A stretch of 64,000 bases of DNA from the NCBI RefSeq assembly GCF_003790525.1, contig NZ_CP033635.1; one strand, 5' to 3'. Shown here one piece after another: positions 20,001-33,857 of the stretch. Each line of letters opens with the position of its first letter. The stretch's first letter is position 1. The notes under the pieces were generated by a model. It searched no databases. It was given only the letters and a program-made list of their open reading frames with translations, and was not told the DNA's origin. The position numbers and the translations under genes are program-made. The DNA is from Escherichia coli (GTDB lineage Bacteria; Pseudomonadota; Gammaproteobacteria; Enterobacterales; Enterobacteriaceae).

Positions 20001-20019
20001 CCATCAGCCCGGTCTTGAA

Positions 20020-20051
20020 GGCCTGATAAGACGCGTGAGCGTCGCATCAGG
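20020..20051. repeat. REP element between cysI and cysH
   Basis: GCCTGATAAGACGCGTGAGCGTCGCATCAGGC palindromic unit. Confidence 0.6.
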
Positions 20052-20073
20052 CAAGGCAAACAGTGAGGAATCT

Positions 20074-20808
20074 ATGTCCAAACTCGATCTAAACGCCCTG
20101 AACGAACTGCCGAAGGTAGATCGCATTCTGGCGCTGGCGGAAACTAACGCCGAACTGGAAAAACTGGACGCTGAAGGCCGCGTTGCCTGGGCGCTGGATA
20201 ATCTGCCCGGTGAATATGTACTTTCTTCCAGCTTTGGCATTCAGGCGGCGGTGAGCCTGCATCTGGTGAATCAGATTCACCCGGATATTCCAGTGATCCT
20301 CACCGATACCGGTTATCTGTTCCCGGAAACCTACCGCTTTATTGACGAGTTAACGGACAAACTCAAACTCAACCTGAAAGTGTACCGTGCTACCGAAAGC
20401 GCTGCCTGGCAGGAAGCGCGCTACGGCAAACTGTGGGAACAGGGCGTTGAAGGTATTGAAAAGTACAACGATATCAACAAAGTCGAACCGATGAACCGGG
20501 CGCTAAAAGAACTGAACGCGCAAACCTGGTTTGCCGGCCTGCGCCGTGAACAATCCGGCAGTCGTGCCAATTTACCGGTGCTGGCAATTCAGCGTGGCGT
20601 ATTTAAAGTGCTGCCGATTATCGACTGGGATAACCGAACTATTTATCAGTACCTGCAAAAACATGGCCTGAAATATCACCCATTATGGGATGAAGGATAT
20701 TTATCGGTCGGTGATACCCATACAACCCGTAAATGGGAACCCGGCATGGCGGAAGAAGAAACGCGTTTCTTTGGCTTAAAAAGAGAATGTGGGTTACACG
20801 AAGGGTAA
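20074..20808 (+). CDS. cysH: phosphoadenosine phosphosulfate (PAPS) reductase
   Basis: Start taken at [14 protein letters not shown] (244 aa); the ORF-track start at 19921 is an upstream extension across the REP. Confidence 0.9.
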
Positions 20809-21072
20809 ATATTGCCGGATAAATTAAACGCCTCTGTCAGAAATGATGGGGGCGTTTTTATTTTGCGAGCAGCATTCCTGATTTTAAACGTGAACGTCGT
20901 TGGAAGAATTAACAGGTATAGAATGGCGTTGGGTGCTTGAGGCTGTCTGGCGTTAAGCATTCGCGAGGTTCCAGATGGACAAAAGCCCCAGGCGATATTT
21001 CTATCAACCTGAGGCCAGCGTTCGAACCCAAACAATTCGAATGTTAGTCTCTTCTTTGCAGGGAGGCAAGAC

Positions 21073-21225
21073 ATGCTGACAAAATATGCCCTTGTGGCAA
21101 TCATAGTGCTGTGTTTTACAGTACTGGGATTCACGCTGATGGTAGGCGACTCGTTGTGTGAGTTGAGTATCAGAGAACGTGGTATGGAGTTTAAGGCGGT
21201 TCTCGCTTACGAATCGAAGAAGTAG
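21073..21225 (+). CDS. Hok/Gef-family type I toxin (50 aa)
   Basis: Below the ORF-track length cutoff; ATG at 21073 preceded by GGGAGG (21061-21066); [50 protein letters not shown] has the Hok family TM helix plus LCE...AYES signature. Confidence 0.7.
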
Positions 21226-21246
21226 CCACCACGCGGGGGTAAAACC

Positions 21247-22585
21247 CATAAGCGCTAACTTAAGGGTTGTGGTATTACGCCTGATATGATTTAACGTGCC
21301 GATGAATTACTCTCACGATAACTGGTCAGCAATTCTGGCCCATATTGGTAAGCCCGAAGAACTGGATACTTCGGCACGTAATGCCGGGGCTCTAACCCGC
21401 CGCCGCGAAATTCGTGATGCTGCAACTCTGCTACGTCTGGGGCTGGCTTACGGCCCCGGGGGGATGTCATTACGTGAAGTCACTGCATGGGCTCAGCTCC
21501 ATGACGTTGCAACATTATCTGACGTGGCTCTCCTGAAGCGGCTGCGGAATGCCGCCGACTGGTTTGGCATACTTGCCGCACAAACACTTGCTGTACGCGC
21601 CGCAGTTACGGGTTGTACAAGCGGAAAGAGATTGCGTCTTGTCGATGGAACAGCAATCAGTGCGCCCGGGGGCGGCAGCGCTGAATGGCGACTACATATG
21701 GGATATGATCCTCATACCTGTCAGTTCACTGATTTTGAGCTAACCGACAGCAGAGACGCTGAACGGCTGGACCGATTTGCGCAAACGGCAGACGAGATAC
21801 GCATTGCTGACCGGGGATTCGGTTCGCGTCCCGAATGTATCCGCTCACTTGCTTTTGGAGAAGCTGATTATATCGTCCGGGTTCACTGGCGAGGATTGCG
21901 CTGGTTAACTGCAGAAGGAATGCGCTTTGACATGATGGGTTTTCTGCGCGGGCTGGATTGCGGTAAGAACGGTGAAACCACTGTAATGATAGGCAATTCA
22001 GGTAATAAAAAAGCCGGAGCTCCCTTTCCGGCACGTCTCATTGCCGTATCACTTCCTCCCGAAAAAGCATTAATCAGTAAAACCCGACTGCTCAGCGAGA
22101 ATCGTCGAAAAGGACGAGTAGTTCAGGCGGAAACGCTGGAAGCAGCGGGCCATGTGCTATTGCTAACATCATTACCGGAAGATGAATATTCAGCAGAGCA
22201 AGTGGCTGATTGTTACCGTCTGCGATGGCAAATTGAACTGGCTTTTAAGCGGCTCAAAAGTTTGCTGCACCTGGATGCTTTGCGTGCAAAGGAACCTGAA
22301 CTCGCGAAAGCGTGGATATTTGCTAATCTACTCGCCGCATTTTTAATTGACGACATAATCCAGCCATCGCTGGATTTCCCCCCCAGAAGTGCCGGATCCG
22401 AAAAGAAGAACTAACTCGTTGTGGAGAATAACAAAAATGGTCATCTGGAGCTTACAGGTGGCCATTCGTGGGACAGTATCCCTGACAGCCTACAAAACGC
22501 AATTGAAGAACGCGAGGCATCGTCTTAACGAGGCACCGAGGCGTCGCATTCTTCAGATGGTTCAACCCTTAAGTTAGCGCTTATG
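21247..22585 (+). mobile_element. IS186 insertion sequence (about 1339 bp)
   Basis: 23-bp terminal inverted repeats CATAAGCGCTAACTTAAGGGTTG (21247-21269) and its reverse complement (22563-22585); encodes IS186-type transposase; flanked by a duplicated GGGTAAAACC-type target. Confidence 0.9.
21302..22414 (+). CDS. insL: IS186 transposase (IS4 family)
   Basis: 370 aa from ATG 21302 (MNYSHDNWSAILAHIGKPEEL...); the ORF track starts two codons earlier at a GTG. Confidence 0.9.
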   Translation: MNYSHDNWSAILAHIGKPEELDTSARNAGALTRRREIRDAATLLRLGLAYGPGGMSLREVTAWAQLHDVATLSDVALLKRLRNAADWFGILAAQTLAVRAAVTGCTSGKRLRLVDGTAISAPGGGSAEWRLHMGYDPHTCQFTDFELTDSRDAERLDRFAQTADEIRIADRGFGSRPECIRSLAFGEADYIVRVHWRGLRWLTAEGMRFDMMGFLRGLDCGKNGETTVMIGNSGNKKAGAPFPARLIAVSLPPEKALISKTRLLSENRRKGRVVQAETLEAAGHVLLLTSLPEDEYSAEQVADCYRLRWQIELAFKRLKSLLHLDALRAKEPELAKAWIFANLLAAFLIDDIIQPSLDFPPRSAGSEKKN

Positions 22586-22768
22586 GGGTAAAACCCCGCG
22601 TACTGAATTGTGATGGTTTGGTCTCCTGCACCCTTTTTTAATTTATATTGTTTATGTGAATATTATGCCTATGTTTATTATTCATATATATTACGGATGA
22701 AAATTATTTGATTATTCATAATGTAAATATTTTATTGAACGATATATATCACAGATAATTTTTAATAT

Positions 22769-25468
22769 ATGCGTAAATATCCTTTAAGTTTACTGAAGGA
22801 TAAAAATATTGTGACTTTTTTTGATTTCTGGGGAAAAACCCGACGCGGCGAGAAAGACGGGGGCGACGACTATCACCTTCTTTGCTGGCATTCGCTGGAT
22901 GTAGCCGCGATGGGCTATTTAATGGTTAAAAGCAATTGCTTCGGACTGGCTGACTATTTTCGTCAATTAGGTTTCGCTGACACGGAGCAGGCAGCACAAT
23001 TTTTCGCCTGGCTGCTGTGCTGGCACGATATTGGAAAATTTGCCCGCTCTTTTCAGCAACTTTACCTGCACCCACAACTCAAGGTCCCGGAAGGCGCAAG
23101 AAAGAATTACGAAAAGATCTCTCATTCAACGCTGGGCTACTGGTTGTGGAACCATTATTTAAGTGAATGTCAGGAGTTGCTTCCTTCATCTTCACTCTCT
23201 CCGCGCAAACTTAAACGGGTGATGGAGATGTGGATGCCCATGACTACCGGGCATCATGGTCGACCCCCTGAGCGTATGGATGAACTGGATAATTTTCTGC
23301 CTGAAGACAAAGGTGCCGCACGAGATTTTCTCCTTGCAATCAAGGTACTGTTTCCGCTCATAGAGATCCCCACATTCTGGGATGATGACGAGGGCGTTGA
23401 ACTTATAAAACAACTTTCCTGGTATATCTCTGCAACCGTCGTACTTGCAGACTGGACGGGATCGTCAACGCGATATTTTCCACGCGTCGCACAGACAATG
23501 GATATTGAAGATTACTGGCAGAAAACTTTAGTTCAGGCTCAAAACGCCTTAACCGTCTTTCCTCCAAAAGCAGAAAGCGCGCCTTTCACCGGAATTAATA
23601 CGCTGTTTCCTTTTATTGAGAATCCGACACCGCTACAGCAAAAGGTGCTGGATCTGGATATCAGCCAGCCGGGACCACAGTTATTTATTCTGGAGGATGT
23701 AACCGGCGCAGGTAAAACAGAAGCGGCGCTTATCCTGGCGCACAGGTTGATGGCTGCGGGGAAAGCGCAGGGTTTGTTTTTTGGCCTGCCAACAATGGCA
23801 ACGGCCAATGCCATGTACGATCGACTGGTCAAAACCTGGCTTGCTTTCTATTCGCCAGAGTCCCGCCCCAGCCTGGTGCTGGCACACAGTGCCCGAACAT
23901 TAATGGACCGCTTTAATGAATCACTCTGGTCCGGTGATTTAGTCGGGTCAGAAGAACCGGATGAACAAACGTTCAGTCAGGGATGTGCGGCCTGGTTTGC
24001 CGACAGTAACAAGAAGGCGCTACTGGCTGAAATTGGCGTCGGCACGCTGGATCAGGCGATGATGGCTGTGATGCCGTTCAAACATAATAATCTGCGGCTT
24101 CTGGGACTGAGTAACAAAATCCTGCTGGCTGATGAGATCCATGCCTGTGACGCTTACATGTCATGCATTCTTGAAGGGCTGATCGAGCGGCAGGCGCGTG
24201 GCGGAAACAGCGTCATTTTGCTTTCTGCCACGTTATCTCAACAGCAGCGCGACAAACTCGTTGCTGCCTTTGCGCGTGGTATAGAGGGCCAGCAAGAAGC
24301 TCCGTTCCTGGAAAAGGATGATTACCCCTGGCTGACGCACGTTACGAAATCCGATGTGCATTCACACCGGGTAGCGACGCGCAAAGACGTTGAGCGCAGC
24401 GTGAGTGTGGGTTGGCTTCATAGCGAACAAGAGTGTATTGCGCGTATCGCATCGGCGGTAAGTCAGGGGAAATGTATCGCCTGGATCCGAAATTCTGTCG
24501 ATGACGCCATCCAGGTTCATCGTCAGTTACTTGCCCGCGGCGTCATTCCTGCTTCCAGCCTTTCACTTTTTCATAGCCGCTTTGCTTTTAGCGATCGCCA
24601 GCGAATTGAAACGGAGACGCTGGCACGCTTTGGTAAAGAAGACTGTTCACAGCGTGCCGGAAAAGTCCTCATTTGTACTCAAGTCCTGGAGCAGAGCGTT
24701 GACTGCGACCTGGACGAAATGATTTCCGACCTTGCCCCTGTTGATTTACTGATCCAGCGAGCAGGGCGATTACAGCGACATATCCGCGATATGAATGGCC
24801 AGTTAAAGCGTGACGGTAAAGACGAGCGTCACCCTCCTGAATTGCTGATTCTGGCCCCCGTCTGGGACGACTCTCCGGGTGACGAATGGTTTGGCAGTGC
24901 CATGCGTAACAGTGCATTTGTCTATCCCGATCATGGGCGAATCTGGCTGACGCAGCGTGTGCTGCGTGAGCAAGGTGCTATTCAGATGCCACACTCAGCC
25001 CGGCTTCTGATTGAATCAGTCTACGGTGAGGACGTAGTAATGCCGGAAGGGTTTGCCCGCAGCGAGCAGGAGCAAGTGGGCAAATATTACTGCGATCGCG
25101 CAATGGCTAAAAAGTTTGTACTGAACTTCAGGCCCGGCTATGCCGCCAATATCAACGATTACCTCCCGGAAAAACTGTCGACACGTCTGGCTGAAGAGTC
25201 TGTTTCCCTGTGGCTGGCTACCTGTATTGACGGTGTGGTGAAGCCTTATGCCACAGGTGCACACGCATGGGAAATGAGCGTTGTCAGAGTGCGCCGAAGC
25301 TGGTGGAAAAAACATCGGGATGAGTTTTCTTTACTGGAAGGGGATGCGTTCAGGCAGTGGTGCGTTGAACAGCGGCATGATCCGGAGATGGCAAACGTGA
25401 TTTTAGTCACCGATGACGAAAGTTGTGGGTATTCGGCTACGGAGGGATTGATTGGCAAGGTTGGTTGA
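22769..25468 (+). CDS. cas3: Cas3 helicase-nuclease (type I-E)
   Basis: 899 aa; N-terminal HD region and superfamily-2 helicase motifs (GAGKTEAA, DEIH); first gene of the cas cluster. Confidence 0.9.
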   Translation: MRKYPLSLLKDKNIVTFFDFWGKTRRGEKDGGDDYHLLCWHSLDVAAMGYLMVKSNCFGLADYFRQLGFADTEQAAQFFAWLLCWHDIGKFARSFQQLYLHPQLKVPEGARKNYEKISHSTLGYWLWNHYLSECQELLPSSSLSPRKLKRVMEMWMPMTTGHHGRPPERMDELDNFLPEDKGAARDFLLAIKVLFPLIEIPTFWDDDEGVELIKQLSWYISATVVLADWTGSSTRYFPRVAQTMDIEDYWQKTLVQAQNALTVFPPKAESAPFTGINTLFPFIENPTPLQQKVLDLDISQPGPQLFILEDVTGAGKTEAALILAHRLMAAGKAQGLFFGLPTMATANAMYDRLVKTWLAFYSPESRPSLVLAHSARTLMDRFNESLWSGDLVGSEEPDEQTFSQGCAAWFADSNKKALLAEIGVGTLDQAMMAVMPFKHNNLRLLGLSNKILLADEIHACDAYMSCILEGLIERQARGGNSVILLSATLSQQQRDKLVAAFARGIEGQQEAPFLEKDDYPWLTHVTKSDVHSHRVATRKDVERSVSVGWLHSEQECIARIASAVSQGKCIAWIRNSVDDAIQVHRQLLARGVIPASSLSLFHSRFAFSDRQRIETETLARFGKEDCSQRAGKVLICTQVLEQSVDCDLDEMISDLAPVDLLIQRAGRLQRHIRDMNGQLKRDGKDERHPPELLILAPVWDDSPGDEWFGSAMRNSAFVYPDHGRIWLTQRVLREQGAIQMPHSARLLIESVYGEDVVMPEGFARSEQEQVGKYYCDRAMAKKFVLNFRPGYAANINDYLPEKLSTRLAEESVSLWLATCIDGVVKPYATGAHAWEMSVVRVRRSWWKKHRDEFSLLEGDAFRQWCVEQRHDPEMANVILVTDDESCGYSATEGLIGKVG

Positions 25469-25565
25469 GATGTCTGCGACAGGATTCTCTGAATAGTTGA
25501 TACACAAAAAAGGATGGAAGGATGGACAACCGACCAGGGATGGTCTTTTTTACGAGAGGATGCGT

Positions 25566-27128
25566 ATGAACTCGTTTTCACTTCTGACAACCCCGTGGTT
25601 GCCTGTTCGTTTCAAAGACGGAACGACAGGCAAGCTGGCACCAGTCGATCTGGCTGATGAAAATGTTGTCGATATCGCCGCACCGCGAGCAGATTTACAA
25701 GGTGCGGCCTGGCAGTTTTTGCTGGGACTACTACAAACCAGCTTCGCGCCAAAAGATCATCGTCGTTGGGATGATATCTGGGAAGACGGACTGGAAGCTG
25801 AAAAGCTACGAGAAGCATTGCTGTCTTTAGAACATGCTTTCCAGTTTGGGCCTGATTCATCTTCATTTATGCAGGATTTTGAGGCGCTCACGGGAGATAA
25901 AGTTCCGGTCGCTTCGCTACTGCCTGAGATTCCCGGCTCTCAAACGACGAAGTTTAATAAAGACCATTTTATCAAGCGGGGTGTAACGGAATATCTGTGC
26001 CCCCATTGCTTAGCATTGGCCTTGTTCTCTTTACAGTTGAATGCACCCGCGGGCGGCAAAGGCTATCGCACCGGTTTACGAGGCGGTGGGCCGATGACGA
26101 CTCTCATTGAATTACAGGAATATCAGGGCAATCAACAAACACCCTTGTGGCGCAAACTGTGGCTCAACGTGATGCCGCAGGATGAAGCCGACTTACCGCT
26201 ACCCAAAAAATTTGACGATCTGATTTTCCCCTGGCTAGGCCCGACGCGTACCAGCGAACTGGTCGGTGCGGTGGTAACCCATGATCAGGTCAATAAACTC
26301 CAGGCGTACTGGGGAATGCCGCGGCGTATACGTATTGATTTTAATACCACGACAGTCGGCAACTGCGATATTTGCGACGAGCAGAACGACGCGCTCCTGA
26401 GCCTGATGACGACCAAAAATTATGGTGCCAATTATGCCATGTGGCAGCATCCCTTAACGCCTTACCGTGTACCACTTAAAGAGGGTGGCGAGTTTTACTC
26501 CGTTAAACCACAACCGGGCGGTTTAATCTGGCGCGACTGGTTAGGCCTTATCGAAACGGGTAAATCAGAAAACAATACGGAACTTCCCGCGTTGGTGGTG
26601 AAACTCTTTAATGCCAGCAGTCTGAAACAGGCAAAAGTGGGCCTATGGGGATTTGGTTATGATTTTGACAACATGAAAGCGCGCTGTTGGTACGAACACC
26701 ATTTCCCGCTACTGCTCAATAAAAAAGAAGGCCAGATACCGAAGCTGCGGCTGGCTGCGCAAACGGCTTCACGGATTCTGAGTCTGTTACGGAGTGCATT
26801 GAAAGAAGCATGGTTCTCCGATCCAAAAGGTGCAAGGGGTGATTTCAGTTTTGTGGATATCGACTTCTGGAACAAAACTCAGCATCGCTTCCTGAGGTTA
26901 GTGCGCCAAATTGAAGAAGGTCAGGATGCGGATGAATTACTCGGCAAATGGCAAAAGGAAATGTGGTTATTCGCGCGTCAGGATTTTGACGAGCGTGTAT
27001 TCACTAATCCTTATGAGCCCGTTGATTTGAAACGCGTCATGACCGCGCGCAAGAAATATTTTACAACATCGGCGGAGAAGCAAAGTGCTAAAGCCGCCAG
27101 GGAGAAAAAGCAGGAGGCTGCTGAATGA
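25566..27128 (+). CDS. casA: Cascade large subunit Cse1 (CasA)
   Basis: Start taken at ATG 25566 (MNSFSLLTTPWLPVR) with GAGAGG upstream; the ORF track begins at a TTG at 25497; position right after cas3. Confidence 0.8.
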   Translation: MNSFSLLTTPWLPVRFKDGTTGKLAPVDLADENVVDIAAPRADLQGAAWQFLLGLLQTSFAPKDHRRWDDIWEDGLEAEKLREALLSLEHAFQFGPDSSSFMQDFEALTGDKVPVASLLPEIPGSQTTKFNKDHFIKRGVTEYLCPHCLALALFSLQLNAPAGGKGYRTGLRGGGPMTTLIELQEYQGNQQTPLWRKLWLNVMPQDEADLPLPKKFDDLIFPWLGPTRTSELVGAVVTHDQVNKLQAYWGMPRRIRIDFNTTTVGNCDICDEQNDALLSLMTTKNYGANYAMWQHPLTPYRVPLKEGGEFYSVKPQPGGLIWRDWLGLIETGKSENNTELPALVVKLFNASSLKQAKVGLWGFGYDFDNMKARCWYEHHFPLLLNKKEGQIPKLRLAAQTASRILSLLRSALKEAWFSDPKGARGDFSFVDIDFWNKTQHRFLRLVRQIEEGQDADELLGKWQKEMWLFARQDFDERVFTNPYEPVDLKRVMTARKKYFTTSAEKQSAKAAREKKQEAAE

Positions 27129-27661
27129 GTATTGTAAAAGAGGAGCACAAAGCCACGCTGCGTAAATGGCACGAAGAGTTGCAGGAAAAACGCGGCAATC
27201 GTGCCAGTCTGCGGCGTAGCACAACGGTTAATGATGTTTGTCTGTCAGAAGGTTTTCGTTCTCTGCTGATGCAGACCCACACGTTGTGGAAAATTGAATC
27301 ACAGGAGTGGCGTTTTACCGCACTGGCGCTGGTTGCCGCCGTTGCCGCCAATGTAAAAGCCATTGATGAACGGCAGCCTTTTGCCGCGCAGTTGGCGGCG
27401 GTAATGTCTGAGGGGCGTTTTACTCGCCTGTCGGCAATCAAAACGCCGGATGATTTACTGCGCCAGTTACGTCGCGCGGTCAAATTATTAAACGGTTCCG
27501 TCAATCTTATCTCTTTGGCAGACGATATTTTCCGCTGGTGCCAGGAGAGTGACGACCTGCTCAACCATCACCGCCGTCAGCAGCGGCCAACAGAATTTAT
27601 CCGTATCCGCTGGGCGCTGGAATATTACCAGGCTGGCGACGCCGATAACGAACAAAATTAA
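27125..27661 (+). CDS. casB: Cascade small subunit Cse2 (CasB)
   Basis: 178 aa; ATG overlaps the cse1 stop (ATGA); position in the operon. Confidence 0.8.
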   Translation: MSIVKEEHKATLRKWHEELQEKRGNRASLRRSTTVNDVCLSEGFRSLLMQTHTLWKIESQEWRFTALALVAAVAANVKAIDERQPFAAQLAAVMSEGRFTRLSAIKTPDDLLRQLRRAVKLLNGSVNLISLADDIFRWCQESDDLLNHHRRQQRPTEFIRIRWALEYYQAGDADNEQN

Positions 27662-27675
27662 TAAAGGACTATCTC

Positions 27676-28731
27676 ATGACGACATTTATTCAGCTTCATT
27701 TGTTAACCGCTTACCCTGCAGCCAACCTTAACCGTGATGACACCGGTGCGCCGAAAACCGTGGTGCTGGGTGGAGCAACGCGTCTGCGCGTTTCCTCGCA
27801 AAGTCTGAAACGTGCGTGGCGCACTTCTGCACTTTTTGAACAGGCGCTGGCGGGCCATATTGGTATTCGTAGTGGGCGTATCGCGCGCGAGGCAGCAACT
27901 ATCATGATAGAGAAAGGAATCGAAGAAAAAAAAGCCATCGAATGGGCGGCAGATATTGCCGATTATCTTGGTAAAGCCAAAAAAGACAAAAAACCAAAAG
28001 ATCCGCTCACTAACGCTGAAACTGAACAGCTCGTCCATATCAGCCCGGCAGAATTTGACGCCGTAAAAGCGCTGGCCCATCAACTGGCAGAAGAAAAGCG
28101 CGCGCCAAAAGAGGACGATCTCGCTTTGTTACGTAAAGATCGTATGGCGGTAGATATCGCCATGTTTGGTCGTATGCTGGCGAATAAACCCGAGTTTAAT
28201 GTTGAAGCCGCCTGTCAGGTCGCGCACGCGTTTGGTGTCAGTGAAACGATTGTCGAAGATGATTTTTTCACCGCCGTTGATGATTTGCGCCAGGCCTCTG
28301 AAGATGCTGGTGCAGGGCATCTTGGTGAAACTGGATTTGGTTCTGCGCTGTTCTACACCTATATCTGCATTGATAAAGATCTGCTGGTCGAAAACCTCGG
28401 CGGTGACGAAGCATTAGCTAATCAGACCCTGCGCGCCTTTACGGAAGCAGCGTTTAAAGTTTCCCCAACCGGTAAACAAAACAGCTTTGCCAGCCGTGCC
28501 TACGCCTCCTGGGCGCTGGCAGAAAAAGGCACCGAACAACCGCGTTCTCTGGCGGCGGCTTTCTATGAACCCATTAATGGCACACGTCAGTTAGATGTGG
28601 CGGTGCAGCGTATTACAACGCTTCGCGAAAACATGAATACGGTTTACGAACAGAAGACCGAATGCGCAAGTTTTGACGTGATGAACAAACAGGGAAGCAT
28701 GAAGGACGTGCTGGACTTTATCTGCGCGTAA
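27676..28731 (+). CDS. casC: Cascade backbone subunit Cas7e (CasC)
   Basis: 351 aa; position and size in the I-E operon. Confidence 0.85.
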   Translation: MTTFIQLHLLTAYPAANLNRDDTGAPKTVVLGGATRLRVSSQSLKRAWRTSALFEQALAGHIGIRSGRIAREAATIMIEKGIEEKKAIEWAADIADYLGKAKKDKKPKDPLTNAETEQLVHISPAEFDAVKALAHQLAEEKRAPKEDDLALLRKDRMAVDIAMFGRMLANKPEFNVEAACQVAHAFGVSETIVEDDFFTAVDDLRQASEDAGAGHLGETGFGSALFYTYICIDKDLLVENLGGDEALANQTLRAFTEAAFKVSPTGKQNSFASRAYASWALAEKGTEQPRSLAAAFYEPINGTRQLDVAVQRITTLRENMNTVYEQKTECASFDVMNKQGSMKDVLDFICA

Positions 28732-28741
28732 GGGGCGGCTT

Positions 28742-29488
28742 ATGAGCCAATATCTGATTTTTCAGCTTCATGGGCCAATGGCATCCTGGGGCGTTGATGC
28801 ACCCGGTGAGGTGCGTCATAGCCATGAACTGCCTTCGCGTTCAGCATTGCTGGGGCTGCTGGCTGCCGGGGTAGGGATACGGCGTGATGACACCGAATGC
28901 TTAAACGCGTTTAATCGCCACTATTCACTGGTGGTTTGCGCCAGCCGTAACCCGCGCTGGGCACGGGATTATCACACGGTCCAGATGCCAAAAGAGGTGC
29001 GTAAAGCGCGTTATTTCAGCCGTCGCGAAGAGTTGAGCGACCCTGATCTTCTAAGCGCGATTATCTCCCGGCGCGACTACTACACCGATGCCTGGTGGAT
29101 GGTGGCCGTGGCAACAACAGCTGATGCGCCTTACAGCCTCGAACAGTTGCAGGAAGGTTTACGCCATCCGGTTTTTCCGCTTTATCTGGGGCGAAAAAGC
29201 CATCCGCTGGCATTACCCCTTGCGCCGTTACTGCTCGAAGGCAACGCGTCTGATGCCTTACGTAACGCATACCAACAGTATCAGGATCGTTTCCACGAAC
29301 TAAAAGTCTCACTCCCGAAACTTCAGGATGAATGCTGGTGGGAAGGGGAGCACGATGGCCTGGTCTCGAGCAAAATATTACGCCGCCGGGATGTTCCTTT
29401 AAATCGTCAGCAGTGGCTGTTTGGGGAACGCACCGTCAATCAGGGGCCGTGGCTCAGCAAGGAGGAACCATGTACCTCTCAAGAATAA
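28742..29488 (+). CDS. casD: Cascade subunit Cas5e (CasD)
   Basis: 248 aa; position in the operon. Confidence 0.85.
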   Translation: MSQYLIFQLHGPMASWGVDAPGEVRHSHELPSRSALLGLLAAGVGIRRDDTECLNAFNRHYSLVVCASRNPRWARDYHTVQMPKEVRKARYFSRREELSDPDLLSAIISRRDYYTDAWWMVAVATTADAPYSLEQLQEGLRHPVFPLYLGRKSHPLALPLAPLLLEGNASDALRNAYQQYQDRFHELKVSLPKLQDECWWEGEHDGLVSSKILRRRDVPLNRQQWLFGERTVNQGPWLSKEEPCTSQE

Positions 29489-30116
29489 CCTTACATACCG
29501 GCCAGCTTTCGCCTGCGCAGTTGCTGCATCTGGTGGATCGCGGGGAATATGTGATGCATCAGTGGCTGTGGGATCTTTTTCCTGGCGGCAAAGAAAGGCA
29601 ATTTCTTTATCGTCGGGAAGAACTCCAGGGCGCGTTTCGCTTTTTTGTCCTGTCGCAGGAACGCCCGGCGGAAAGTGAAACGTTCACCATCGAATGCCGG
29701 TCATTTGCGCCTGAACTGCATACCGGACAATCCCTTTGTTTCAACCTGCGGGCGAATCCAACAGTCTGTAAAGCGGGTAAGCGCCACGATCTGCTGATGG
29801 AGGCGAAACGGCAGGTGAGGGGGCAGGCGGAAGGAAGAAATGTCTGGTTGCATCAACAACAGGCGGCGCTGGACTGGCTGGCAGCGCAGGGGGAGAGAAG
29901 CGGTTTTACACTGCTGGATACCTCGGTCGATGCCTACCGACAACAGCAACTGCGGCGGGAAAACTCCCGGCAACTGATCCAGTTCAGTAGCGTGGATTAT
30001 ACAGGGATGCTTACAGTCACCGATCCAGGGTTATTTCTGCAACGTCTCTGCCTGGGGTATGGCAAAAGCCGGGCGTTCGGCTGTGGTCTGATGTTAATCA
30101 AACCCGGAGCAGAGGC

Positions 30117-30120
<4 letters not shown>
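29470..30120 (+). CDS. casE: crRNA endoribonuclease Cas6e (CasE)
   Basis: Start taken at MYLSRITLHTG with GGAGGA at 29461-29466; overlaps the casD 3' end by 19 bp. Confidence 0.85.
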
Positions 30121-31330
<1,210 letters not shown>

Positions 31331-31426: not shown

Positions 31427-32797
31427 GTGTTCCCTGCGCCAGCGGGGATAAACCGGTGACCATAAGGGCATTTCATACTGCCTTGCTGTGTTCCCTGCGC
31501 CAGCGGGGATAAACCGGTGAACGTGACAACGCCCGCGACAGAAACGTCGTGTTCCCTGCGCCAGCGGGGATAAACCGGGAAGAAGCGGTAAAGCGGGTTC
31601 CAGTTCAGCGTGTTCCCTGCGCCAGCGGGGATAAACCGAAATTAATTTCGAAACGGGCGTTGATGGTGAAGTGTTCCCTGCGCCAGCGGGGATAAACCGG
31701 CTGGCGCACCTTACGCAAAAATAGACGTAAAGTGTTCCCTGCGCCAGCGGGGATAAACCGCCAGGGAGCGAAGCTGTGGCCATGCTGAAAGGGTGTTCCC
31801 TGCGCCAGCGGGGATAAACCGGGGTTCTATTTCCTCGGGATTTGCCGACACGCGTGTTCCCTGCGCCAGCGGGGATAAACCGGTCAACGCTGGTCAGGCG
31901 TGGTACTTCCTCCGGTGTTCCCTGCGCCAGCGGGGATAAACCGGCTGCCGCGCTTTCGGTGTGGGAGCAGTATGAGTGTTCCCTGCGCCAGCGGGGATAA
32001 ACCGAAACTCCGTGGTGTAGTGCGTTTGTTGGTGCGGTGTTCCCTGCGCCAGCGGGGATAAACCGTTGGTATTAACGGGAATGTAGTCACTCCAGGAGTG
32101 TTCCCTGCGCCAGCGGGGATAAACCGGCGATCGTATTTTCCGCTACGTCGCTCAAATGGTGTTCCCTGCGCCAGCGGGGATAAACCGTCGTTGATGGTGT
32201 GATGAGTGTACAAAAAAAAGTGTTCCCTGCGCCAGCGGGGATAAACCGACGACTGAATCCGGCGAGGCTATCAACTGGCCGTGTTCCCTGCGCCAGCGGG
32301 GATAAACCGCCGCACACGTCGAGCTGGTGGGGATTAATGCTGTGTTCCCTGCGCCAGCGGGGATAAACCGCAGTAAACGTTCGCGCGTTCTCGCGCTCAC
32401 GAGTGTTCCCTGCGCCAGCGGGGATAAACCCTCTGTGTATTCGCTACCAGCCAGCACCGGTACGTGTTCCCTGCGCCAGCGGGGATAAACCGCAGGGTAA
32501 CTGGCTGCTCCTCAACCATTCCGCGTGTTCCCCGCGCCAGCGGGGATAAACCGGGGTTTTAGCGACCGGACCAGAGTACGCAACAGTGTTCCCCGCGCCA
32601 GCGGGGATAAACCGTTGCGCCTTAAGTTCCTTAACTTCCTCTGTATGTGTTCCCCGCGCCAGCGGGGATAAACCGGGAGTGATGAATTGGAAGTAACGGA
32701 TAACCGCGTGTTCCCTGCGCCAGCGGGGATAAACCGGACGCACTGGATGCGATGATGGATATCACTTAGAGTTCCCCCCGCCCCTGCGGTAGAACTC
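31427..32797 (+). CRISPR. type I-E CRISPR array: 23 repeats of 29 bp (last one degenerate), 22 spacers of 32 bp, period 61 bp
   Basis: Repeat GTGTTCCCTGCGCCAGCGGGGATAAACCG starting at 31427, 31488, 31549 ... 32708 (every 61 bp); degenerate terminal repeat GAGTTCCCCCCGCCCCTGCGGTAGAACTC at 32769-32797. Confidence 0.95.
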
Positions 32798-32819: not shown

Positions 32820-33857
32820 TCAAGACGCCTTCGCCAGCTCTTTCACCAGAGGTAGCATTATCCGCATAACGTCACGGCAGCGACGTTCTATTCTTCCAGG
32901 AAGTGCCTTATCAATATGTTGTTGATTATCCAGTCTTACGTCATGCCAGCTATTTCCCGCAGGGAATGCAGCTGTTTTTGCGCGTTGCTGATAACCATCC
33001 TTATTTCCAAGATTCCAGTTGGTCGCCTCCACCGAAAGTACCGCAATACCGGCTTTGTCGAAAACTTCGGCGTCATTACAACAGCCAGTACCCTTCGGAT
33101 AATTTTTATTCAAACCCGGATTGGTCGTTGCGGCAATTCCATGACTACGCGCAATTGCCAGCGCCCTGTCGCGCGTTAATTTCCTTACTGCTTCAGGGGT
33201 TTTTACACCGCTGTTGAAATACAATTTATCGCCAACAATTAAGTTATCGAGATTAATCACCAGCAGTGTATTTTTCTTTTCGGAGTCACTCATCCGCTTG
33301 AGTAAATTCTCAGCGCCTAATTTCCCTTCCTCTTCGCCGCTGGTCGCCACAAATCGAATACCATACTCGGTAGGCGTATTTTTCAGGCGTTCTGCCAATT
33401 CCAGCATGACACCTAAACCTGCGGCGTTATCATCCATTCCTTGTAACGTCAGCCCGCCGAGATTGGCATCGGCGTCAGCATCGCTCAGCGGGGCGTAAGT
33501 ATCCAGATGCGCCATAATGATGATCTGCTGCGGCGCTTTGCCTTCATGAGCGGCAATCACCGTACTTCCCGTCACGTTATGCCAGCTCTTGCGATTATCG
33601 CGGGCGGTATAAATATACCGACTATTAAATGTCCGAATATCACTGCGATAACCCATTTGCTGAAACTGTTGGCGAATATAATCGGCAGATAACATTTCTG
33701 CTGGAGTTCCGGTCATGCGTCCCGGAAAGAAAGTAGCAATATGTCGTGCCTGGGTATTAGCAAAATCGCCAGGTTTAGGTGACGAGGCGTGTACGGGGAG
33801 AATAAAGCATACGCCGAGCGCCAGGGCAGCGGTACGGTGGCGCAATGCGGAAAACAT
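32820..33857 (-). CDS. iap: alkaline phosphatase isozyme conversion aminopeptidase
   Basis: 345 aa with signal peptide; M28-peptidase-like; convergent with the CRISPR array. Confidence 0.85.
   Translation of the reverse strand: MFSALRHRTAALALGVCFILPVHASSPKPGDFANTQARHIATFFPGRMTGTPAEMLSADYIRQQFQQMGYRSDIRTFNSRYIYTARDNRKSWHNVTGSTVIAAHEGKAPQQIIIMAHLDTYAPLSDADADANLGGLTLQGMDDNAAGLGVMLELAERLKNTPTEYGIRFVATSGEEEGKLGAENLLKRMSDSEKKNTLLVINLDNLIVGDKLYFNSGVKTPEAVRKLTRDRALAIARSHGIAATTNPGLNKNYPKGTGCCNDAEVFDKAGIAVLSVEATNWNLGNKDGYQQRAKTAAFPAGNSWHDVRLDNQQHIDKALPGRIERRCRDVMRIMLPLVKELAKAS

Follow-up and report, generated by a model that had tools for sequence, protein, structure and literature searches.

The region between cysH and cas3 in the DNA analysed here, a 64,000-nt stretch from Escherichia coli that we call the window, is almost certainly the chromosomal hokX/sokX type I toxin-antitoxin locus of this species, and an IS186 element has split it just after the toxin gene. 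The toxin and antitoxin genes are intact, and the locus is probably crippled as a delayed-killing module. We give this full reading, which comprises the hokX/sokX identity, the anatomy, the IS186 split and the crippled module, a probability of about 0.9. The locus has been described in papers and sokX is annotated in K-12, so this is a known locus: its name, its position, the Sok RNA and its IS-interrupted state are already found in the literature and in the RefSeq annotation. The importance beyond correct annotation is little. An annotation of the locus should nevertheless show SokX and the IS186 element as well as the toxin gene, which automated ORF calling based on length misses. The features are as follows:

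20826-20866, plus strand: intrinsic terminator of cysH (14-bp stem and T-run), found by a terminator scan and lying outside the toxin-antitoxin locus proper.
20919-20924, plus strand: putative -10 element TAGAAT of the hok/mok promoter, 6 nt before the mRNA 5' end.
20931-21088, plus strand: hok mRNA leader, matching positions 1-157 of the 157 of Rfam model RF01794.
20975-21079, plus strand: mok-like leader ORF of 34 codons, with the Shine-Dalgarno (SD) sequence GAGG (20965-20968) 6 nt ahead of its ATG.
20975-21033, minus strand: SokX antisense RNA of 59 nt (from its 5' end at 21033 to about 20975), placed by identity to K-12 sokX.
21041-21069, minus strand: putative sok promoter, with -35 TTGCCT (21069 to 21064), a 17-nt spacer and -10 TAACAT (21046 to 21041).
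21073-21225, plus strand: hokX toxin gene of 50 aa (Pfam PF01848; RefSeq WP_000956460.1, 'Hok/Gef family protein').
21232-21246, plus strand: left half of the GC-rich 3' hairpin that is the IS186 target (CGCGGGGG-UAAAA-CC...), split by the element.
21247-22585, plus strand: IS186/IS421 (IS4 family), 1339 bp, with perfect 23-bp terminal inverted repeats and an IS4 transposase.
21296-22414, plus strand: transposase ORF of IS186 (NCBIfam IS4 transposase, 133.2 bits; cut-off 115).
22586-22639, plus strand: displaced 3' end of the hok mRNA (second copy of the target duplication, right half of the hairpin, fbi and T-run).

The first-pass annotation of this DNA had recognized a toxin locus of the Hok family in the space from cysH to the cas operon, and Pfam, Rfam, the RefSeq annotation and the neighbouring genes (end of cysH at 20808, start of cas3 at 22769) all agree with this. 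That reading of the locus was right, but it did not mention the 1339-bp IS186, which begins one base past position 21246. The 452 bases that lie 3' of cysH have a match in 5425 of 5426 complete E. coli genomes; at least 80% of this query is covered in 4145 of them, and the annotation is 'Hok/Gef family protein'. In every genome that we inspected the locus is directly downstream of cysJIH. Elsewhere in E. coli hokX/sokX occupies the same position, in the cysH-cas3 or cysH-iap region, and WP_000956460.1 is present in many strains. An uninterrupted hokX is the state of 2265 genomes, which match at least 80% of the empty-site query, whereas the locus of the window is IS186-split. Among 237 uropathogenic strains, hok plus sokX was found adjacent to cysH in 90%, the remainder having sokX alone as in K-12 (PMC12736100). 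Two antisense ORFs on the minus strand (20676-21134 and 21004-21249) were dismissed as by-products of a structured region.

Regarding the toxin, the 50-codon Hok/Gef ORF that had been proposed at 21073-21225, with a strong SD sequence, has exactly these coordinates, and GGAGG is found at 21062-21066, 6 nt ahead of the ATG. A homology search of the 50-aa peptide had been suggested as a check, and it gave a match to Pfam HOK_GEF (PF01848) with E 3.5e-11 and 43.0 bits, in which residues 5-46 cover the full model (positions 1-42 of 42). The peptide also has the expected transmembrane helix followed by the LCE...AYES signature: a hydrophobic stretch runs from about residue 5 to 24 (the maximum Kyte-Doolittle mean over 19 residues is 2.66, at residues 7-25), and LCE (28-30) and AYES (45-48) align with those of HokE, HokA and HokC. 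The named Hok models of NCBIfam were matched below their curated cut-offs, which delimit named orthologue groups and not the superfamily (57.7 versus 89 bits for the HokA equivalog, 41 versus 73 for the Hok subfamily). The protein is therefore filed by Pfam only, and this explains its generic RefSeq name. HokX has HokE, HokA, HokC and HokB as paralogues and is related to the hok/sok system of plasmid R1; the K-12 paralogues share with it 39 of 50 (HokE), 25 of 50 (HokA), 19 (HokC) and 16 (HokB) identical residues, that is, 78% identity to HokE and 38% to HokC. The small size of the ORF is the one point in favour of a chance reading frame with no toxin gene behind it, and such an origin can practically be dismissed given the E values of the Pfam match and of the Rfam match to the leader (1.6e-25) and the conservation and annotation of the gene in thousands of genomes.

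The leader of the hok mRNA matches RF01794 with 111.1 bits (gathering score 59), and this is the only above-threshold Rfam match in the whole window. Its 5' end, GGGUGCUUGAGGC (20931-20943), is the tac element, and the 5' block is conserved in K-12 hokE, hokC and hokB. The TA..AT columns of the putative hok -10 are likewise invariant across hokX, hokE, hokC and hokB, and a good -35 is absent upstream of it. The sigma-70 consensus scan of 20780-21300 called neither the hok nor the sok promoter and gave one weak site inside hok, so both promoters were placed by homology and by reading of the sequence; the terminator scan of the same interval found the cysH terminator only. The Rfam family is named 'sok antitoxin', and its match is on the strand of the hok leader (20931-21088, plus), opposite to the annotated SokX (20975-21033, minus). 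If Rfam alone were used for annotation, the antitoxin would be given the wrong strand and an excess length of about 100 nt.

An antisense Sok-like RNA had been expected opposite the 5' leader, with the remark that it could not be placed from the sequence. The expectation agrees with what we found and the remark does not hold, because the annotated K-12 ncRNA sokX (b4701) is 100% identical to the window from 21033 to 20975 on the minus strand. SokX is homologous to the annotated SokE, SokC and SokB. It is predicted to fold into a short 5' hairpin followed by a 13-bp terminal hairpin and CUUUUGU, which resembles a terminator. The -10 TAACAT of its putative promoter sits 7 nt before the Sok 5' end and the -35 overlaps the hok SD sequence; the same promoter layout is found upstream of the annotated sokE and sokB. 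With a score of 8/12, under the threshold of the consensus scan, this promoter has to be regarded as a candidate. Judged by its sequence, SokX would be a cis-encoded antisense RNA with a promoter and a terminator of its own, complementary to the start of the leader ORF.

The 34-codon leader ORF had also been recognized correctly: it runs from 20975 to 21079 and its TGA falls 7 nt into hok (ATGCTGA). The ATG and its SD sequence lie at the 3' edge of the Sok-complementary stretch, and their position is common to hokE (-98 and -99 from the hok ATG), although the frame and the end differ. The peptide of 34 aa had no protein family match in the family-model search. The arrangement had been taken as the one expected for mok-type translational coupling, and this claim stands in part. 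In plasmid R1, saturation mutagenesis showed that the mok start codon is needed, plus translation that at least reaches the hok SD sequence, and that mok translation past the hok start is dispensable (PMC9841398). By its layout the ORF at 20975-21079, which has an SD sequence and extends beyond the hok SD, follows this rule. However, the ORF is conserved neither among hokX alleles nor among hok paralogues. In one representative of each allele class, a 1-nt deletion in the O157:H7-type alleles (L010 1336-1482 and L011) leaves a leader ORF of 18 codons that ends 40 nt before the hok ATG, a TAA in ATCC 11775 (L012 552-700) likewise leaves 18 codons, and ECE170 (L013 552-700) has ACG in place of the leader ATG and, across the predicted helix, a U-to-C change that compensates for it. 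According to the predicted fold, this compensatory pair preserves the RNA structure while the start codon is destroyed. Hok is intact in all three types, and the O157:H7-type leader recurs with at least 99% identity in about 1006 genomes. This variety of natural leader-ORF lesions, seen in single representatives while Hok is conserved, is mildly new.

It could then be that the upstream ORF is an accidental frame and not a functional mok, that Hok translation at hokX is independent of it, and that the leader is conserved for its RNA structure and for the Sok gene on the other strand. We consider this somewhat unlikely. The truncated and ATG-less alleles with their intact Hok speak for it, as do the leader peptide without a family match and the paralogues, in which the upstream ORF either shares the frame of hok (hokE and hokC) or overlaps hok by 110 nt (hokB). 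Nevertheless, what R1 needs is that ribosomes translate as far as the hok SD sequence, whatever the peptide (PMC9841398), so variation of the frame is to be expected; the ATG and the GAGG are positioned as in hokE, exactly at the edge of the Sok-complementary stretch; and the truncated-leader alleles may simply be decayed copies. Because the leader ORF is truncated or start-less in other hokX alleles, the assumption that coupling is required at hokX is weakened. Mok-type coupling is plausible for the window allele, as a reasonable extension of the R1 rule, and it is not a conserved feature of hokX.

The element that follows the toxin gene has its inverted repeats at 21247-21269 and 22563-22585, an IS4-family DDE transposase and a target duplication between a G-run and a C-run, which are the marks of IS186; the same element is annotated as an IS4-like IS421 transposase in the identical strain CM2. 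The duplication, GGGTAAAACC, is of 10 bp and lies inside GGGGG-N5-CCCC (copy 1 at 21237-21246, copy 2 at 22586-22595). The insertion point is inside the hairpin CGCGGGGG-UAAAA-CCCCGCG, 21 nt past the hok stop codon. Consequently the fbi element, GGUCUCCUGCACCC (22620-22633), and the T-run (22634-22639) have been displaced by about 1.35 kb. Removal of the IS186 and of one copy of the duplication yields a sequence with 100% identity to strain 2014C-3075, in which this locus is uninterrupted. On the plus strand, the initial part of IS186 gave no terminator-like site from which the end of the interrupted transcript could be predicted.

The window belongs to a minority of genomes that carry IS186 at hokX in this orientation, roughly 150-200 of 5426. 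This number is only a rough estimate, because the search for the hok-IS186 junction is confounded by the hokE::IS186 junction, which is 89.3% identical and is present in about 1570 records. IS186 lies at equivalent sites in K-12, 18 nt past the stop codon of hokE in the same orientation and 19 nt past that of hokC/gef in the opposite one. IS186 ends also adjoin the chromosomal mokC/hokC and a plasmid-borne gene annotated as hokD in other E. coli records. Since IS186 ends are found beside several hok genes, the GC-rich hairpins downstream of these genes would seem to be a hot spot for IS186 in general. In E. coli C, IS186 occupies the hokX junction found in the window but is turned the other way; this orientation was seen once and left out of the count. 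There (L002 3395-3480 and 4715-4860) the other end of IS186 abuts a different G/C-run site, GGGGTTTTTCCCC, beside a CRISPR repeat; a matching target duplication is lacking, and fbi is absent, as are the entire cas operon and some of the array. This rearrangement looks like an IS186-mediated deletion.

The consequence of the insertion for the mRNA was examined in predicted folds. In the reconstructed uninterrupted mRNA of 360 nt, whose fold has a z-score of -4.05, nt 1-6 and 9-13 of tac pair with fbi with a predicted probability of 0.90-0.98. Six other uninterrupted hokX alleles are predicted to have the same closure through G-C/G-U changes, and in K-12 hokB a tac-fbi closure is predicted with different bases on both sides. 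If fbi is removed, or if the transcript reads 60-300 nt into IS186, tac is predicted to fold locally with nt 20-32. This predicted switch reproduces the full-length (tac/fbi) and the truncated forms of R1 (PMC9841398). In the window, fbi and tac do not lie in one contiguous mRNA of about 360-400 nt, and they do so only in the reconstructed empty-site sequence. Thus IS186 parts hok from fbi and the terminator, and the mRNA would be unable to adopt the fold-back form. Read-through of all of IS186 to the old terminator could in principle still allow the long-range tac-fbi pairing.

From these elements we propose the following functioning. A weakly promoted mRNA would start at 20931 and carry the mok-like leader ORF and hok, the gene of the 50-aa membrane toxin. 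SokX, complementary to the start of the leader ORF, would have a promoter overlapping the ribosome-binding site of hok; if hokX behaves as R1 does, the paired Sok would keep the leader ORF, and with it hok, from being translated, and RNase III would cut the duplex. In an intact locus, again by analogy with R1, the tac-fbi fold-back would store a stable silent mRNA, and trimming of its 3' end would activate it slowly. In the window strain, without a contiguous fbi, the mRNA would probably be always open and accessible to Sok, with no stable reservoir.

This is why we regard the locus as probably crippled as a delayed-killing module. It may also be argued that the pair still works fully, the transcript ending in IS186 with an open fold and being held in check by abundant SokX alone, in which case cells would die or stop growing once Sok is no longer transcribed. 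The hok ORF with its SD sequence, the leader ORF and the Sok gene with its promoter are intact and identical to those of uninterrupted alleles, the local tac hairpin predicted for transcripts that run into IS186 is that of the active, 3'-truncated form, and K-12 gef (hokC::IS186), which has the element downstream, is reported to be still transcribed and antisense-regulated (PMC3562002). However, in R1 the fold-back form is the long-lived mRNA reservoir (PMC9841398), without which Sok binding and immediate degradation would be expected, and chromosomal hok loci that carry IS elements are listed as non-functional in the account of PMC7232551, which cites Pedersen and Gerdes 1999. The K-12 IS186 copies at hokE and hokC are described as inactivating these loci, or at least as leaving them without fbi and normal processing (PMC7232551; PMC3562002). 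We therefore find it unlikely that the pair works fully, although 'inactive' may be too strong a word, because K-12 gef is reportedly still regulated despite its IS186. The locus of the window strain is split by IS186, and counts of intact toxin-antitoxin modules should leave it out.

The comparison with K-12 MG1655 shows another fate of the same locus. From cysH to the hok ATG, leader included, the two sequences do not differ, and then K-12 breaks into the upstream region of cas3. Thus K-12 has lost the hok ORF directly after the ATG and has kept the leader and sokX (b4701), whereas the window keeps the hok ORF. In E. coli B, where hokX has been described, an IS element is reported downstream too (PMC7232551), and a crippled state has been published for that copy as for hokC and hokE of K-12. 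The K-12 loci hokE::IS186B and hokC(gef)::IS186A share with hokX the leader blocks, the Sok hairpin and the GC-rich 3' hairpin, and in the three loci IS186 lies 18-21 nt past the hok stop codon within that hairpin, the orientation at hokX being that of hokE. They differ from hokX in their chromosomal sites and in the upstream ORF, which is in frame with hok there and in the +1 frame in hokX.

The hok/sok/mok (parB) system of R1 resembles hokX in several respects: the leader is of the same Rfam family, the antisense RNA is directed against the start of the leader ORF, the sok promoter overlaps the hok translation start, the leader ORF reaches the hok SD sequence (PMC9841398), and the 5' and 3' ends pair through tac and fbi, in hokX only for the reconstructed mRNA. 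Nevertheless, the R1 mok has 70 codons and overlaps hok extensively, whereas the hokX leader ORF has 34 and barely overlaps it. Furthermore, R1 is plasmid-borne, whereas hokX is chromosomal, with its fbi split off by IS186, and can have no role in plasmid stabilisation.

When the alleles are taken together, hokX appears to have been disabled along several routes, namely hok deletion (K-12 type), IS186 in either orientation, frameshift or nonsense changes in the leader and loss of the leader ATG, with the Hok peptide appearing intact throughout. If these routes were independent, there would be either recurrent selection against an active hokX or Hok translation free of mok, and in the former case the hok 3' hairpin would act as a built-in landing pad for IS186. 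We think that this whole reading, the landing pad included, is improbable and mention it as a speculation. If it were true, a mok-independent translation of Hok at hokX would depart from the R1 paradigm.

Regarding the neighbourhood, we rejected the idea that hokX is an addiction module guarding the adjacent CRISPR-Cas system, because the intact locus persists in strains in which the whole cas operon has been lost (O157:H7 type, L011; ATCC 11775, L012; ECE170, L013). Upstream, a REP-like palindrome between cysI and cysH (20010-20053) gave partial Rfam naRNA4 matches below the threshold (33.6 versus 59.5 bits). The IS186, about 180 bp upstream of cas3, could affect the cas3 promoter region, and work on the expression of CRISPR-Cas I-E in the window strain should take into account its position between hok and that region. 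Downstream of it there is a complete type I-E cas operon (22769-31330), with cas3 (899 aa, 22769-25468), cse1, cse2, cas7, cas5, cas6e and cas1. The CRISPR array follows (31427-32736), with 22 repeats at a 61-bp period, most of them GTGTTCCCTGCGCCAGCGGGGATAAACCG, one base off the K-12 consensus, and after the array iap is found on the minus strand (32820-33857).
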